A stretch of 51,888 nt of DNA from Candidatus Ornithospirochaeta stercoravium (GCA_017694915.1 JADIMF010000098.1:1-51888), one strand, 5' to 3'. Counted from the first letter of the stretch, positions 7,068 to 25,399 are shown. Numbers and translations are program-made. Notes: generated from the letters alone by a model not told the origin.

Positions 7068-8984
7068 CTAGTATCTGATGACCTTTGCCTCTTCATCGTT
7101 TTTTCTGATGAACACTCTGCCATAGGCTTCAGCTTCTCCTGCTTTTATGAGGAATCCTCCAGCGGGGTATTCATTCGATATCATCGCTACTGAGTATCTG
7201 TCGCTACCCGATTCTATCTCGAGCCCGAATGAGATCTCCTCCGGTATTTCCTTTCCGGAAAGCGGCTTCACAAGAGGAATCTTCCTGTATGTGAAATCCT
7301 CATTTCCTATTGCTATAAGGGTAACGATGAGCTTTCTTCCTTCTGCCATATCCTTAACCGTTAAGAGAGGTGAGGAGAGCATCTCATTGTATCTCTTCGA
7401 CATAGGATACTCAGAAACGGAAGCTTTGCCTGAAAATGGAATAAGCTTCACAGAACTCTTATCCTTTATTGCCCTGAAGCCATCATTCTCCTCTTCCAGA
7501 GCCGTTCCCTCATCAAAATGATAGAGGATGGAAGCCTCCGCTTTGCCTTCTGATGCTATATCGTCGGCGATGATTACGAATCGGTCCTCGATTGTCAGTA
7601 TCGACCTTGTTACATAAACACCTTCCTTCATGTAACCAAGATGTGATGCCCTGAGGTATTTGTAATCTCCATCGACAACGGCATCCGAGAAAACAGGTTC
7701 AGCAAAGGATGAAACGCCCCAGCTGTCTTCCATAACCGACTGGTCATGCCCGTTGATTATCACGGTGTTATGACCGGACGCGCCTTTGAGGGCCCTGCGT
7801 TCCTTTGTGTCTACATATGTGAAACGTCCCGTGTCTGTAATAATCGTACTGCCATCTGCATAGAGATCGAAATGAAGCTGATCGAAATGTCCATGGCCGC
7901 TACCTATGAGACCGGAATGAAATCTCAGCGCCCTCTTTTCCGAAAGCGTGAGGATTGCGTTGCCGCTGTCCTTGAAATAGTACGAAGCATTTCCCGGATT
8001 CTCTTCTGGAGGAAGCTCTGCATCGAGCTCGTTCGACATATAGAACTCCTCATCGAGACCGCCTTTGGCATAGTGAGAGAGAATCCCGTCTGAGAAGAGA
8101 ATTGCGGCGGAGGCAATCATGTCGCGCATGTCGATTTCGTCGCTGTCTCCGAAAAGATAGCTTCTGCCATCAGGCCTGAGCGTTTTCGCAAGGCCCGTCG
8201 CAAGGAGATGTGTATTCTTTCTCAATGCATCCGGAACCGCAATGCCGTTTCTATCAGCGACGATGATCGTATCCATTGCTGCATGCAGCACTTCAGCCTG
8301 ATACATCGTGCTCTGTTCCCAGTGCATACCGTCAGGGAACGTCTGCAGCCTCATCTCCTCATCAAGGCGGGAAAGCGCGGTTTCCATGCTCTTCTTATCA
8401 TCAAGATAGAGAGAGGCCAGAAACAGACCATGATCCTGAAGAACTCCCCAGTTCGATATCTGATGGAATGCTGTGTGTGATGCGAGAAGATGCCTTATGT
8501 GGATTCTGAAGAACTTTCGGATATCATCCATCGTGCTTTCATCGAGAGGCGTTCCGATACCTTCGAATATTTCGATGCATCTTACGTAGTTCTCGATCCT
8601 TATGCCGCTCTCAAGCGATCTCCAGGAAAGGGAAGATGTCTTCTTCGAGAGTTCTGAGCGATGGAAGAAATCCTCAAAGAGCCTTATCCAGTTATCTCTG
8701 TATCTCGTATCTCCTGTGATGGCCGCCGCGATTGCATTCTTCAGCAGGAATGTATGTCGGTTGAAAGCGAAGCACCACTCGTTGTCACCGAAAGGAATAT
8801 AATCCCAATCGATATCTTTATCGAAGTGCACTTTCTTCGTGCACCTCTCCATCTCATATTTATCTGTGAATGAGAATATGTTCTCGATACTCTCATCTGC
8901 TTTCTCAATAATAGAGCCACGCCAGGAGGCGTTTCCCTGGCAGTGGCTGATGTTTTTTTTAGGATCTTTCAGATAAAAATACAT
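7068..8984 (-). CDS. Heparinase II/III-like polysaccharide lyase family protein (cytoplasmic)
   Basis: The ORF track gives 7068..9020 with a TTG start that overlaps the permease by 35 nt. I prefer ATG 8984, 4 nt after AAGGGA and 2 nt after the permease stop. Motif GHGHFDQLHFDLYADGSTIITDTGRFTY is typical of the Hepar_II_III C-terminal domain. No signal peptide. Confidence 0.85.
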   Translation of the reverse strand: MYFYLKDPKKNISHCQGNASWRGSIIEKADESIENIFSFTDKYEMERCTKKVHFDKDIDWDYIPFGDNEWCFAFNRHTFLLKNAIAAAITGDTRYRDNWIRLFEDFFHRSELSKKTSSLSWRSLESGIRIENYVRCIEIFEGIGTPLDESTMDDIRKFFRIHIRHLLASHTAFHQISNWGVLQDHGLFLASLYLDDKKSMETALSRLDEEMRLQTFPDGMHWEQSTMYQAEVLHAAMDTIIVADRNGIAVPDALRKNTHLLATGLAKTLRPDGRSYLFGDSDEIDMRDMIASAAILFSDGILSHYAKGGLDEEFYMSNELDAELPPEENPGNASYYFKDSGNAILTLSEKRALRFHSGLIGSGHGHFDQLHFDLYADGSTIITDTGRFTYVDTKERRALKGASGHNTVIINGHDQSVMEDSWGVSSFAEPVFSDAVVDGDYKYLRASHLGYMKEGVYVTRSILTIEDRFVIIADDIASEGKAEASILYHFDEGTALEEENDGFRAIKDKSSVKLIPFSGKASVSEYPMSKRYNEMLSSPLLTVKDMAEGRKLIVTLIAIGNEDFTYRKIPLVKPLSGKEIPEEISFGLEIESGSDRYSVAMISNEYPAGGFLIKAGEAEAYGRVFIRKNDEEAKVIRY

Positions 8985-15666: not shown

Positions 15667-15740
15667 TGATATATTTCTGATAACACTGATAGTATCATAT
15701 GTCGACAAATAATGTGAAATTTCTCCATTTTCTGATCTGG

Positions 15741-15841
15741 ATTTGTTTGACAGAAATCTTTGATTTACGGCCTCTTTTTACATAATTTCTTATATTGCAA
15801 GTAAAAATTTGTTTGATTGTTGTTTGATAATTGTTTGATTG
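15741..15841 (+). repeat. 101-bp direct repeat, copy 1 (upstream flank of the AlbA_2 gene)
   Basis: ATTTGTTTGACAGAAATCTTTGATTTACGGCCTCTTTTTACATAATTTCTTATATTGCAAGTAAAAATTTGTTTGATTGTTGTTTGATAATTGTTTGATTG. It matches 17342-17442 with 6 mismatches by hand alignment, at an offset of 1601 bp. Confidence 0.9.
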
Positions 15842-15852
15842 TTATTTGACAA
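15809..15852 (+). repeat. 4 x 11-bp phased tandem units (iteron-like): TTGTTTGATTG / TTGTTTGATAA / TTGTTTGATTG / TTATTTGACAA
   Basis: Read directly from the sequence. The 11-bp period is about one helical turn. The last unit lies outside the 101-bp repeat and supplies the TTGACA -35 of the AlbA_2 gene promoter candidate. A related TTGTTTGAC occurs at 15743-15751. Confidence 0.8.
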
Positions 15853-15874
15853 CCAGCAAATGTTCTTGTATCTT
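15846..15874 (+). promoter_or_regulatory. Candidate leaderless-type promoter of the AlbA_2 gene (TTGACA-17-TATCTT, -10 ends 6 nt before ATG 15881)
   Basis: TTGACA 15846-15851, 17-nt spacer, TATCTT 15869-15874, then tataat and ATG. There is no SD upstream of either candidate ATG (15860 or 15881). Confidence 0.4.
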
Positions 15875-15880
15875 TATAAT

Positions 15881-17341
15881 ATGCAGAAGGGTTTTGATTA
15901 TCTGGCATTGGTGCATTTGCTGAGAAGCTATAAACAGGAAGAAGACTGGTTCGAATTCAAACTTAATAAGGTTATTCCCGAAATGCTTGGTAAATATGTT
16001 TCCGCATTGAGTAATTCAGCTGCGATCTCACAGCATCCTTATGGATATCTTGTATGGGGTATTGATGATTCGACTCACGAAGTAAAAGGAACATCTTTCT
16101 ATCCAGAAACTGAGAAAAAAGGGAATATGGATCTGCTTAATTGGCTGATTCTGAATATAACGCCGAGAATCAATATTGATTTCATAGAGCTTGAGACAGA
16201 AACAGGCAAGCACATTGTTGTTATGGAAGTTCCTGCTGCAATCTCAGAACCTGTGAGGTTCATGAAAGATGAATATCTAAGAATAGGATCGCATGTTCAG
16301 CCTTTATTGAAGTATCCGGACTATGAGCGCATCTTATGGAAGCGCTTTGAACATGTTCCTGCAGAAAAGCATATTGTGCAGGGCGGGGTTGAACTTGATG
16401 ATCTGAATAAGCTTCTTATATTAGAGCAATATTTTGTATTGCAGGGGCTGCCTACGCCTTCGAGTACAAAAAGGCAAGCTGAAAAATTCCTTGATGAGGG
16501 ATTTGTCGTTCATCAGGATGATGGCGCTTATGGTATAACTGCATTAGGAGCATTGCTGTTTGCTCGCGATCTCCGTCAGTTCCCTTCTCTTGCTTCGAAA
16601 GCTCTACGAATAATCAGATATCAGGGAGCAGGCCGAATCAACGCAGTAAATGATATTACAGTTTCAGAAGGTTATGCGATTTCATTTGAGAAGACGTGTT
16701 CGCTGGTTTATGAGTTTCTGAAACGACCAGAAACAATTGATGGAGGCCTTCGCAAAGAGAACTTCCTTTTTCCCCCCGCATCAGTTAGAGAGGTTCTTGG
16801 AAATATTCTGATTCATCAGGATCTGTCTGTTATGGGGGCTGGCCCTCTTGTGGAGGTTTTTGATAATAGGCTTGAAGGTTCGAATCCCGGCGCATTGCTT
16901 GTCCCCGCGGACAGGGTTATCGATGCTCCTCCTCGGGCTCGTAATGAGGCTTTGGCCGCATTTCTTAGAAGACTTCATGTCTGTGAGGAAAGGGGGAGTG
17001 GCTTTGACAGAATGGAGGAGGGCCTAGAGAGTGTTATGCAGCCATCTCCTCTGGTAGAGACTGCTCTTGATTTCACGAGAATCAAGCTTTTCAGGTATGC
17101 ATCATTCAAGGATTGGACAAAAGCAGATAAGATTCGTACTTGTTATTTTACAGTTTGTCTCAAATACATAGAGACTGTTCCTGTTTCCAATTCGATGCTG
17201 CGTTCTAGATTCGGTATAGACCAGGCAAATAGTGCCATAGTTTCCCGAGTTGTAAACGATACGATAGAGGCGGGGCTTATCCGAATACAGGATGCTTCTG
17301 TAGGGGCAAAGGCAAGAAGGTATGAACCATATTGGGCGTGA
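15881..17341 (+). CDS. Schlafen-like AlbA_2 domain + HATPase_c_4 domain protein (COG2865-type 'RecG-like ATP-binding / putative transcriptional regulator')
   Basis: ORF 15839..17341; I prefer ATG 15881 (MQKGFDYLALVHLL...). The N-terminal part EDWFEFK...YGYLVWGIDD...KHIVVMEVP is AlbA_2-like. The region VREVLGNILIHQDLSVMGAGPLVEVFDNRLEGSNPG...RARNEALAAFLRRLHVCEERGSGFDRM is HATPase_c_4-like, and the C-terminal tail is wHTH-like. The gene looks more AT-rich than its neighbours. Confidence 0.75.
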   Translation: MQKGFDYLALVHLLRSYKQEEDWFEFKLNKVIPEMLGKYVSALSNSAAISQHPYGYLVWGIDDSTHEVKGTSFYPETEKKGNMDLLNWLILNITPRINIDFIELETETGKHIVVMEVPAAISEPVRFMKDEYLRIGSHVQPLLKYPDYERILWKRFEHVPAEKHIVQGGVELDDLNKLLILEQYFVLQGLPTPSSTKRQAEKFLDEGFVVHQDDGAYGITALGALLFARDLRQFPSLASKALRIIRYQGAGRINAVNDITVSEGYAISFEKTCSLVYEFLKRPETIDGGLRKENFLFPPASVREVLGNILIHQDLSVMGAGPLVEVFDNRLEGSNPGALLVPADRVIDAPPRARNEALAAFLRRLHVCEERGSGFDRMEEGLESVMQPSPLVETALDFTRIKLFRYASFKDWTKADKIRTCYFTVCLKYIETVPVSNSMLRSRFGIDQANSAIVSRVVNDTIEAGLIRIQDASVGAKARRYEPYWA

Positions 17342-17442
17342 ATTTGTTTGACAGAAATCTTTGATTTGTGGCCTAGTTTTACATAATTTCTTATATTGCA
17401 AGTAGAAATTTGTTTGATTGTTGTTTGATGATTGTTTGATTG
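17342..17442 (+). repeat. 101-bp direct repeat, copy 2 (starts at the first base after the AlbA_2 gene stop); carries 3 x 11-bp units at 17410-17442
   Basis: ATTTGTTTGACAGAAATCTTTGATTTGTGGCCTAGTTTTACATAATTTCTTATATTGCAAGTAGAAATTTGTTTGATTGTTGTTTGATGATTGTTTGATTG. No plus-strand gene follows it, because the next gene (MATE) converges. Confidence 0.9.
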
Positions 17443-17574
17443 GAATCTGTTTTCTATGAAAATCAGGTGATGATAAAGTCTCTTGTTGAGAATACAGGAA
17501 GCCGTTAGTGATATGCCATCTTGGAGCTTTCCGTTTCTGGCGGAAAACTCCTGAAAGACATTTTACATGGAGGA

Positions 17575-24769: not shown

Positions 24770-24788
24770 TGTTTTAAAGGGGATTCGA

Positions 24789-24974
24789 ATGCCTGTAAGT
24801 GGAAAAGAACTTATAAGAGAATTGCGCAAAGCAGGATACGAAGTAAAGAGAATTACAGGTTCTCATTATGTTATGGATAATGGAAAGATTACTGTTGTTG
24901 TTCCAAATCATAGTTCGGATTTGCCAATGGGAACAGAAATGGCAATAAGAAAGAGAACAGGAGTATGCAGATGA
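24789..24974 (+). CDS. hicA: HicA-family mRNA interferase toxin
   Basis: ORF 24741..24974, with the start moved to ATG 24789. MPVSGKELIRELRKAGYEVKRITGSHYVM... has the conserved GSH motif. About 61 aa. Confidence 0.85.
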   Translation: MPVSGKELIRELRKAGYEVKRITGSHYVMDNGKITVVVPNHSSDLPMGTEMAIRKRTGVCR

Positions 24975-25399
24975 ATGAATATCCAGCGCGGTTTGTAAAA
25001 GAGGAAGATGGAAAATTCAGTGTGTTCTTTCTAGGAAAAGGCATGGAAGGCTGTATTACGTATGGTAATGACAGAGACGATGCAAGAAAGAATGCTCAGG
25101 AGGCTTTAGATGCATATATTGGGTATCTGTATAGCGAGAGAAAGAGAATTCCAGCGCCTGTTTCTGTAAGCGGGGATGGAATAGAGTATTTTGCGCCTGA
25201 TTATAGAATCCAGTTTGCAATAACCCTGAGAAAAAACAGAGAAAAGAGGCATATCACACAAAGTGACATGGCATTCCGAATGGGAATTCTTCCTGCTCAG
25301 TATCAGAGGCTGGAAAATCCGAAGAAAACTAATCCTACGCTTGAAACAATACATAGAATCGAAGAAGCTTTGGGGGATTCTGTTTTCCTGAGATTCTGA
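24965..25399 (+). CDS. hicB: HicB-family antitoxin with C-terminal XRE-type HTH
   Basis: 144 aa, overlapping hicA by 10 nt. The N-terminal part YPARFVKEEDGKFSVFFLGKGMEGCITYGNDRDDARKNAQEAL is a HicB fold. The C-terminal part LRKNREKRHITQSDMAFRMGILPAQYQRLENPKK is an HTH. Confidence 0.85.
   Translation: MQMNEYPARFVKEEDGKFSVFFLGKGMEGCITYGNDRDDARKNAQEALDAYIGYLYSERKRIPAPVSVSGDGIEYFAPDYRIQFAITLRKNREKRHITQSDMAFRMGILPAQYQRLENPKKTNPTLETIHRIEEALGDSVFLRF

Follow-up and report, generated by a model that had tools for sequence, protein, structure and literature searches.

Introduction

The 51,888 nucleotides of DNA analysed here, from Candidatus Ornithospirochaeta stercoravium (GCA_017694915.1 JADIMF010000098.1:1-51888; hereafter the window), carry a Schlafen gene that is bracketed by two copies of a direct repeat, which we call R (R_up before the gene and R_dn after it). 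Our analysis suggests that R is probably the cognate operator and autoregulatory array of the protein encoded between its two copies. Related loci from other genomes and metagenomes are numbered L001 and onwards.

The gene family and its broad role are already known. Prokaryotic Schlafens (pSlfns) were shown in 2025–2026, for proteins with other sensor domains, to be phage-defence tRNA nucleases (PMC13056530; Nat Microbiol 2026), which overtakes the statement in a preliminary description of the window that their bacterial function is not established. The Schlafen nuclease has the catalytic motif Ex4(E/D)xK, and the composition termed HisKinase-HTH (helix-turn-helix) makes up 19.2% of 5,930 pSlfns (PMC13056530). 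The constructs that gave defence were a DUF262 fusion and an Ig-like fusion, and the constructs tested carried just 100–150 nt of upstream sequence (PMC13056530). As in the HisKinase-HTH class, the window protein combines an Slfn/AlbA_2 domain (with the Ex4(E/D)xK motif) with a GHKL-type domain and an HTH at its C-terminus, and in this it is unlike the defence-active examples with their DUF262 and Ig-like sensor domains.

A second described system that R resembles is the lac repressor. In the passage of PMC3711431 that cites Abo et al. (2000), LacI bound at operator O3 blocks its own transcript, giving a truncated mRNA and SsrA tagging; the likeness to R lies first in the position of the (here putative) binding site at the very end of the regulator's own gene. 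The same passage describes the roadblock as leading to truncated non-stop transcripts and tmRNA-mediated degradation (PMC3711431), steps that at R would be analogous. More generally, the part of a 2026 paper drawn on here states that DNA-bound proteins can block RNA polymerase before a stop codon, and that the trapped ribosomes are rescued by trans-translation (PMC13584721). The second likeness lies in an auxiliary site in helical phase, which permits looping: lac DNA loops in vivo have a helical repeat of ~11 bp, with same-face spacings of 55, 66 and 77 bp predicted and used (PMC3001091), and the spacing in R is likewise quantised at ~11 bp. In nearly all loci the sites lie at +1 to +24 past the stop codon, and the offsets between them (66–111 bp, period 11–11.5 bp) are in helical phase. 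Unlike the lac operators, the sites in R are direct 11-bp repeats, putatively bound by a winged helix-turn-helix (wHTH), and not palindromes; they lie just after the stop codon and do not overlap it; and no conserved regulated operon lies downstream.

In the iteron plasmids P1 (incC-repA-incA) and F (ori2-repE-incC), an initiator gene is flanked by sets of iterons that its product binds, the upstream set overlapping the promoter and serving in autoregulation. The window recalls them in having direct repeats of helical period on both sides of a gene, in an upstream set that overlaps the promoter, and in the way that protein and iteron specificities diversify together. It differs from them in its protein, which is not of the Rep family, in loci that are chromosomal, inherited vertically and show no sign of an origin, and in the duplication of a whole 105-bp unit and not of the iterons alone.

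Architecture of the locus

A repeat search placed R at 15738–15848 and 17339–17449, as two 111-nt copies that are 91–93% identical and spaced 1601 bp apart; between 14.0 and 19.5 kb this is the single family of long direct repeats, with two copies. The preliminary description had reported a 101-bp sequence occurring twice with six mismatches and a 1601-bp offset, the copies bracketing exactly one gene (15881–17341) whose TGA is followed at once by the second. The repeat search and a MAFFT alignment gave the same result (exactly 6 mismatches over 101 nt between 15741–15841 and 17342–17442), and the bracketing was confirmed on the sequence: the TGA occupies 17339–17341, R_dn has its first base at 17342, and the alignable stretch also takes in TG(G/A) of the stop codon. 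The features are listed here in order.

15738–15848, + strand: R_up, comprising box 1, a 56-nt spacer and four tandem 11-bp iterons
15741–15751, + strand: box 1 of R_up, ATTTGTTTGAC, a distal iteron, with the first of the proximal ones 66 bp (6 x 11) further on
15790–15800, + strand: spacer box TTATATTGCAA in R_up, from the alignment of clade copies
15809–15852, + strand: four tandem iterons, TTGTTTGATTG / TTGTTTGATAA / TTGTTTGATTG / TTATTTGACAA, from Tandem Repeats Finder (TRF)
15846–15874, + strand: predicted sigma-70-like promoter, TTGACA (in the last iteron), 17 nt, TATCTT; 10/12 matches, the best in the region
15881–17341, + strand: Schlafen gene, 486 aa, with AlbA_2 nuclease, middle domain, HATPase_c_4 and C-terminal wHTH
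17339–17449, + strand: R_dn, from the stop codon, comprising box 1, spacer and three iterons
17342–17352, + strand: box 1 of R_dn, starting on the first base past the TGA
17391–17401, + strand: spacer box TTATATTGCAA in R_dn, conserved in the spacer
17410–17442, + strand: three tandem iterons of R_dn, from TRF and a count on the sequence

R is thus an array of 11-bp iterons of the form TTGTTTGAYnn, four upstream and three downstream (TRF on R_up: period 11, 3.7 copies). The distance from box 1 to the iterons is invariant, the pattern spanning 87 nt in all pattern-matching copies of the Spirochaetaceae clade despite differing spacers. The spacer box TTATATTGCAA, with the palindrome TTGCAA at its centre, is kept in several Spirochaetaceae R spacers, the rest of the spacer being divergent. 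Iteron number differs between strains that are 99% identical: R_dn has three in the window (17410–17442) and in L104, and two in L003 (6040–6077), where an 11-bp unit has been lost. This difference suggests slippage within the array.

R is specific to this locus. Two R probes of 25–26 nt each match only the two R copies in the 51.9-kb window, with 0.00 chance matches expected, and TTGTTTGAT occurs there six times, every time within an R copy, against an expected 0.72. The 6–10 kb flanks of 60 related loci hold no further copies either. The question raised earlier, of whether the 101-bp unit is dispersed, is answered by these searches, and a generic dispersed repeat was rejected. A degenerate R pattern matched 37 stretches of the Joint Genome Institute (JGI) metagenome collection, most of which read as simple 11-bp microsatellites or chance matches; in the three that carry a Schlafen gene (L074, L083 and L101), R adjoins the gene. 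The pattern's three matches in viral contigs were unrelated. A template/variable repeat pair of a diversity-generating retroelement was also dropped as a candidate: the repeats are non-coding, their mismatches are by inspection not adenine-specific, and no reverse-transcriptase family is listed near the gene.

The ATG of the window gene lies 6 nt past the −10 box (TATCTT). The same geometry, TTGACA-17-TAnnnT-6-ATG, was read by eye from the alignment in L009, L005, L006 and L012, with L011 departing from it. The mRNA is probably leaderless, and this predicted geometry accounts for the missing Shine-Dalgarno sequence, which the preliminary description had correctly noted. An in-frame ATG at 15860 is chosen in some gene calls (493 aa), yet lies upstream of the predicted transcription start.

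The two domains named earlier, AlbA_2 and HATPase_c_4, are both found above Pfam cut-offs in profile searches: SLFN_AlbA_2 (PF04326) with E = 1e-14 and 55.5 bits against a cut-off of 25.3, and HATPase_c_4 (PF13749) with E = 7e-16. The catalytic Ex4(E/D)xK motif is intact in the translation (E20-EDWF-E25-F-K27), and E20, E25 and K27 are nearly invariant across 64 homologues. An AlphaFold2 model built from these 64 homologues (predicted local distance difference test score 89.5) has a C-terminal wHTH with helices at 414–430, 437–444 and 448–463 and a β wing at 467–483, the predicted recognition helix being residues 448–463. Since the Slfn/AlbA_2 domain with its motif, the GHKL domain and the C-terminal wHTH are all present, the window protein is a prokaryotic Schlafen of HisKinase-HTH composition. 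A sequence search of the PDB found nothing, and a fold search was needed to reach its structural relatives: Foldseek matched the structural-genomics protein 3LMM, the N-domains of human SLFN14, SLFN11 and SLFN13, and PDK and histidine-kinase CA (GHKL) domains, with weak matches to MarR-type wHTH domains (E = 0.13). Scans of the protein with PADLOC and NCBIfam gave sub-threshold matches only. The closest relatives are in metagenome-assembled genomes of uncultured Spirochaetaceae (58–80% identity), followed by Lachnospiraceae and other Firmicutes (44–49%).

Recognition helix and iterons

Residue 451, the one after N450 (an invariant position where the predicted recognition helix begins), pairs with the iteron sequence without exception, as follows.

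TAGTTGA iteron: K at residue 451, in 12/12 loci
TATTTGA iteron: M at residue 451, in 10/10 loci
TCGTTGA iteron: K at residue 451 plus M at 453, in 5/5 loci
TGTTTGA iteron: S at residue 451, in the window, L009 and L011

Further pairings are of N-M-Y with ATTTGCA and of a distinct wing, TAPRYYK, with TAAGTTG. The wing residues 474–478 switch along with the iteron type.

The clearest cases are pairs of loci in which the rest of the protein is nearly unchanged. Residues 1–430 are 100% identical between L023 (K, TAGTTGA) and L027 (M, TATTTGA), compared with 67% for residues 445–480; in their DNA, identity declines from around codon 435 onwards and homology stops beyond the first site pair. Similarly, L016 is 96% identical to L019 and L014 over the backbone and 61–64% over the helix/wing region, and their iterons differ. 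Helix, wing and iterons have therefore been exchanged as one module, on at least two protein backbones, and such swaps between near-identical backbones mean that the co-variation is not simply phylogeny. Lysine opposite G and methionine opposite T are common amino-acid/base contacts. We regard the case for a wHTH that would read the iterons as strong, though indirect.

The downstream element in homologous loci

We surveyed sequence downstream of the stop codon in 46 homologous loci; as many of these are related to one another, there are fewer independent observations than the counts imply. The loci are mostly from metagenome assemblies, yet the main architectures were seen again in independent assemblies and on finished plasmids. 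For each locus we asked whether the 24 nt that follow the stop codon occur a second time downstream, at ≥17/24 matching positions; they do in 38/46 loci compared with 0.3% of 366 control open reading frames (ORFs) from the same loci. The first iteron site lies 1–24 nt after the stop codon, and the commonest downstream 7-mer is found at +3 to +6 and at +14 to +17, and later again as a pair. Pair-to-pair offsets cluster at 66, 76–77, 86–88, 98–101 and 111, with a best-fit period of 11–11.5 bp.

Homologues of the Lachnospiraceae type have no upstream copy; their stop codon is directly followed by two 8-bp sites 11 bp apart, a pair that appears again farther downstream. Where loci from unrelated contexts are compared, homology typically runs from about the start codon to +23 to +25 past the stop, that is, through the first site pair. 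Three to four tandem R units are found in L035, L036, L040, L041, L048 and L083, with units of 76–97 nt in some relatives; in L040 (6631–6980) and L048 (2266–2598), three tandem units of ~97 nt lie between the gene and a downstream hsdR. The neighbours of 36–37 Lachnospiraceae loci are mixed and on either strand (restriction-modification (R-M) genes, helicases, serine recombinases, IS21 IstB, AIPR and housekeeping genes). R therefore serves no conserved partner gene, and a partner downstream of R was rejected as a candidate.

Ten homologues from plasmids and phages were also inspected, those on plasmids being 37–42% identical to the window protein. The element is clear in Providencia, Aliarcobacter, Burkholderia (two plasmids), Desulfosarcina and Pseudosulfitobacter, and degenerate in Cupriavidus necator and in Burkholderia phage Musica. 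In the Providencia rettgeri plasmid the sites lie at +1, +12, +79 and +90. The Desulfosarcina sp. BuS5 plasmid (L122, NZ_CP087953.1 14020–15477) has perfect site pairs at +4/+15 and +103/+114, a spacing of 99 = 9 x 11, and its homologue is flanked by a DUF1156 'anti-phage-associated' gene on one side and a PLD-like anti-phage gene on the other. No recognisable iteron pair follows the stop codon in Streptococcus satellite phage Javan309 (L117, MK448420.1 1285–2751; 36% identical). This homologue adjoins a phage-satellite integrase and has a short C-terminal extension (…PYWGIGYNE), and may be a natural comparator without R.

In the Aliarcobacter faecis plasmid pAFAEC (L118, NZ_CP053838.1 113622–115088), gene and R lie within a type I R-M operon, in the order hsdR-hsdM-[gene]-R-hsdS. 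This layout recalls PrrC, the anticodon nuclease embedded in a type I R-M locus (EcoprrI). The likeness is of a predicted tRNA-targeting nuclease in or next to hsd genes, here in Aliarcobacter and, directly upstream of hsdR, in L040 and L048. Unlike PrrC, the proteins described here have a different nuclease fold, not all of them are associated with hsd genes, and no R-M gene adjoins the window copy.

An R directly after the stop codon is thus a hallmark of the gene family across bacterial phyla, and one that is apparently undescribed. Neither PMC13056530 nor the literature searched on AlbA_2/HATPase_c_4, COG2865, and Schlafen with HTH, direct repeats or autoregulation was found to describe an iteron element at the 3′ end, its phasing, a helix/iteron code, the swapping of modules or an R-gene-R arrangement, though other papers may exist. 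The words repeats, operator, intergenic, autoregulat- and DNA-binding are absent from the text of PMC13056530.

Evolution of the repeats in Spirochaetaceae

The full R-gene-R arrangement occurs at at least four different chromosomal sites in the Spirochaetaceae clade.

Site A: between a response regulator gene and MatE; the window, L001, L003 and L104
Site B: between NUDIX and a 322-aa gene; L009, and L005 with R_up only
Site C: between yhbY and pfk; L006, L010 and L011
Site D: 504-aa ORF upstream and truncated ORF downstream; L012, with the downstream copy decayed

R_up and R_dn of the same locus are 96, 93, 92, 86, 78 and 64% identical, always more than copies at orthologous sites in different genomes (65–73%). 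The flanking housekeeping proteins track the same relationships, pfk being 82–91% identical where the Schlafen protein is 64–74% identical. The pattern is one of concerted evolution of R_up and R_dn and not of recent insertion. Between R_up and R_dn, the iteron cores differ at 6/144 positions and the remainder at 45/335 (p = 0.002), which indicates purifying selection on the iteron cores of both copies. Two distant homologues from other metagenomes (L074 and L101; 35–36% identity) also have R on both sides, with unrelated spacers in L074 and homogenised spacers in L101.

Loss of the gene was found at site C. In L112–L114, whose flanks are 95–97% identical to those of L011 over 9.7 kb, one R stands in place of R-gene-R. 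Its 107 nt align to both L011 copies and are R_up-like on the left, R_dn-like on the right and mosaic between, as expected of the product of recombination between R copies with loss of the gene. A chimeric solo R exactly at the place of the gene therefore documents repeat-mediated gene loss. The single chimeric copy left after loss, and flanks that are more alike within a locus than between orthologues, resemble the deletion and gene conversion that produce solo long terminal repeats (LTRs); unlike LTRs, the R copies are not regenerated by replication, and they are putative functional cis-sites under selection. In L013 (5895–7290), also at site C, both R copies are intact and the gene has been cut back at its 5′ end, without −10 box or start codon and short of roughly its first 87 codons; it is a decaying pseudogene allele. 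The more distant L108–L110 (pfk 76% identical) have a yhbY-pfk spacer without R.

The earlier proposal to look for an empty site is answered at site A by L105 and L106 (response regulators 82% and 67% identical), which have neither gene nor R. The Schlafen gene is therefore accessory. In L106 (7626–11141), which has the same sugar-utilisation synteny, three other genes separate the response regulator from MatE, encoding a beta-helix protein, an unknown 287-aa protein and an AAA_14/DUF4143 ATPase; the site A junction thus behaves as a small variable region. No solo R was found at site A in either of these two relatives, which have other DNA there. Relocation is indicated by the proteins themselves: the window protein (site A) is 80% identical to that of L009 (site B), which is closer than L009 is to its site-mate L005 (75%), and so the unit has moved at least once.

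Two further observations concern the ends of the unit. In L011 (5863–5882 compared with 7442–7461), and likewise in L013, the 20 nt to the left of R_up take in the stop codon of yhbY and agree at 15/20 positions with the 3′-terminal 20 nt of the Schlafen coding sequence (CDS); the agreement could be a relic of a duplicated gene end, come from gene conversion that ran beyond R, or reflect microhomology that served in insertion. A Logan unitig of 1631 bp (L002) has the same R 30-mer at 1–30 and 1602–1631, 1601 nt apart. Such ends would be expected of any de Bruijn unitig bounded by a repeat, and an excised circle would look alike.

A model for the function of R

We propose that R is an array of DNA sites that would be bound by the Schlafen protein's own C-terminal wHTH. 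It is most likely the protein's own operator because the iteron sequence co-varies with the recognition helix and both are swapped together. The module common to the family is the ORF with R right after its stop codon, where 8-bp sites, paired or in a run, repeat every 11 bp and a second set follows at a distance of about n x 11 bp. With n x 11 spacing (66 bp in the window) both sets of sites would lie on one face of the helix, and an oligomer could therefore bind them with a small loop. In the spirochaete lineage and a few others there is a second R upstream, the last iteron of which would provide the −35 box of the leaderless promoter.

The protein may bind both arrays as an oligomer. At R_up, binding would repress the leaderless promoter. 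At R_dn, binding stabilised by the small in-phase loop would stall RNA polymerase at or just before the stop codon, so that surplus expression would yield non-stop transcripts and degraded protein in the manner of LacI at O3. This specific roadblock/non-stop step we put forward tentatively, as a possibility with less in its favour than the operator itself. The outcome would be a potentially toxic tRNA nuclease kept at a low, buffered level; for a nuclease able to shut down translation, tight and noise-resistant control of dosage would be sensible. Two 105-bp direct repeats 1.6 kb apart have side effects: gene conversion keeps the copies alike, and unequal or intramolecular recombination occasionally deletes the gene and leaves a solo R.

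Several points weigh against this model. All its functional steps, from DNA binding, repression and the non-stop roadblock to a role of the window protein in defence, are inferred from sequence. The distance from stop codon to first site, at 1–24 nt, is looser than a strict roadblock-before-stop model predicts. In Aliarcobacter, gene and R lie upstream of hsdS, whose expression a strong roadblock would lower as well. Autorepression of the promoter cannot be a general rule, since an upstream operator is missing from most Lachnospiraceae loci. The 11-bp steps in spacing could in part have arisen as whole iterons of 11 bp were gained and lost, and not through selection for helical phase. Helix and iterons are physically adjacent, and linkage could inflate their association; the association persists across segments that have diverged by 19–39%, and affects all iterons of a locus together. 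Finally, defence in E. coli was obtained with two constructs, and neither of the two HisKinase-type pSlfns that were tested is one of them (PMC13056530).

The HisKinase-HTH composition accounts for about one fifth of prokaryotic Schlafens, and the data give its HTH a testable role, that of reading an iteron array within the gene's own module. The proposed code of single residues and single bases (K with G, M with T, and S with TGTTTGA) can be checked directly. Constructs that include the upstream region only omit the conserved 3′ element, and the class might therefore be mis-regulated or inactive in heterologous tests. If the model is true, roadblock autoregulation at the 3′ end of a gene, so far known mainly from lacI, would be a widespread natural arrangement from Firmicutes and Spirochaetes to Proteobacteria. 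In the R-gene-R form, duplicated operators would drive concerted evolution, gene loss (as solo R) and possibly changes in the copy number of a defence gene.

Alternative explanations

The best of the alternatives concerns the origin of the upstream copy. As the preliminary description had suggested, the arrangement could be the remnant of a tandem array (gene-R-gene-R), with R_up being the downstream R of a former gene copy that has since been deleted. We consider this possible, if doubtful as a full account. The 15/20 match to the CDS end before R_up in L011 and L013 is what such a history would leave, weaker traces of the same kind were seen by eye before R_up in the window, L009, L074 and L101, and the six loci with three to four tandem units indicate that R does duplicate. 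Among the loci fetched, however, none has two tandem gene copies. R_up is precisely integrated with the promoter, its last iteron holding the −35 box, in most members of the clade (L011 departs), and it has been kept by concerted evolution and by purifying selection on its iteron cores; the L074 R_up, whose spacer is unrelated to that of R_dn, also argues for a function of the upstream copy. The suggestion therefore stands as a plausible origin of R_up and falls short as a function, since it leaves the maintenance of the repeat unexplained; as an origin it is compatible with operator arrays.

An unlikely alternative would make R an integral DNA part of a defence system, in which the nuclease is loaded in cis on the looped array, held inactive there, and released when infection perturbs the DNA. 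The triggers would be degradation of host DNA, a change in supercoiling (the 11-bp phasing making the loop sensitive to twist), or phage DNA mimics and decoy sites. Swapping of helix and iterons as a module would then be a result of selection, either for orthogonality or for evading decoys carried by phages. If this were true, gene and R would form a two-part immune module of a protein plus its cognate DNA site, or a toxin with a DNA 'antitoxin'.

The preliminary description had also proposed a mobile or recombinational single-gene cassette, whose ~100-bp flanks serve primarily as att-like sites or recombination substrates, with the gene excised as a circle and re-inserted. We find this quite improbable as the primary role of R, though parts of it hold. 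Repeat-mediated loss is documented by the chimeric solo R in L112–L114, whose flanks are 95–97% identical to the occupied L011, and the gene is accessory, being absent from relatives of site A; the at least four chromosomal sites and the relocation implied by the window, L009 and L005 (80% compared with 75%) also fit a cassette, as do the atypical base composition of the gene at third codon positions and the identical 30-mers 1601 nt apart at the ends of L002. The att-like role is what fails. There is no integrase, transposase or tRNA nearby; the naive empty sites of L105, L106 and L108–L110 hold no R as a target; most family members have R only downstream; and R is made of the protein's putative cognate iterons and carries the promoter −35 box. 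At shared sites the gene diverges in step with its housekeeping neighbours, implying long vertical residence. The overlapping ends of L002 have the look of a repeat-bounded unitig and are no evidence of a circle, and deletion between R copies is expected of any pair of 100-bp direct repeats.

Two known forms of cassette were considered and rejected. Integron cassettes share with this module a compact ORF directly followed by an element the size of a recombination site (~100 bp), and in the Lachnospiraceae the homology likewise begins at about the start codon. Unlike attC, R consists of direct and not imperfect inverted repeats, has no hairpin potential (z = +0.7 and +1.7) and is accompanied by no IntI; it is confined to one gene family, the window copy has its own promoter, and there is no further R in the window or the locus flanks. 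An integrative element with att sites was set aside on finding no recombinase or tRNA, repeats of 105 bp that are 91–93% identical, and naive sites without R.

Action of R at the RNA level appears very unlikely. Here R would be transcribed as a 3′ untranslated region or 5′ leader and would restrain the Schlafen RNase, as a repeat RNA like a type III antitoxin or as a tRNA-like decoy. The Schlafen domain does bind and cleave RNA (PMC13056530), R_dn follows the stop codon without an intervening terminator and so is probably transcribed, and some relatives have three to four tandem units of 76–97 nt, about the size of a tRNA. R gave no Rfam match at E ≤ 1, however, and folds no better than shuffled sequence (z = +0.7 and +1.7 in the window and −0.7 in L014, with a spacer hairpin in L026 only), and a known RNA family or structured RNA was rejected on this basis; a type III toxin-antitoxin system was rejected for the same two reasons and because the nuclease family is a different one. 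The 11-bp site period and n x 11 spacing are properties of the DNA helix, R_up lies upstream of the −35 box and contributes to it, and would thus be mostly untranscribed, and the co-variation is with the wHTH and not with the Slfn domain. That R is the origin, handcuffing site or centromere of a replicon or partition module is the least probable of all: the iterons-gene-iterons layout recalls P1 repA (incC/incA) and F repE (ori2/incC), and homologues occur on plasmids and in a phage, but the protein has Slfn, GHKL and wHTH domains and is not of Rep or ParB type, the loci are syntenic across species at conserved chromosomal positions between housekeeping genes and vertically inherited, and the plasmid copies lie among transfer and defence genes on plasmids which, where typed, carry other replicon clusters.

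Genomic neighbourhood

The gene lies, as first described, between a sugar-sensing two-component system and a MATE pump: Pfam assigns the upstream neighbours to a His_kinase/AraC-type response-regulator pair and the downstream one to a convergent MatE gene. It is also, as had been noted, more AT-rich than its neighbours, mainly at third codon positions, where its GC content (GC3) is 0.37 compared with 0.45–0.52 in six neighbouring genes; overall GC is 0.433 compared with 0.449–0.478. The reported absence of mobility genes and tRNAs was reproduced: from about −8.7 to +10 kb the gene table of L001 (a 99.4% identical contig) lists no integrase or transposase family, and there is no tRNA across the whole 51.9-kb window.

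The earlier remark that the family recurs next to defence genes applies to many relatives, which adjoin R-M, DUF1156/PLD, AIPR and similar genes, but not to the window copy, which with its sugar system and MatE pump lies outside any obvious defence island. The only other defence- or addiction-type module seen near the Schlafen gene is a HicA toxin/HicB-like antitoxin pair ~7.4 kb downstream, at about 24787–25397 of the window (from L001 17656–18266, offset 7131).

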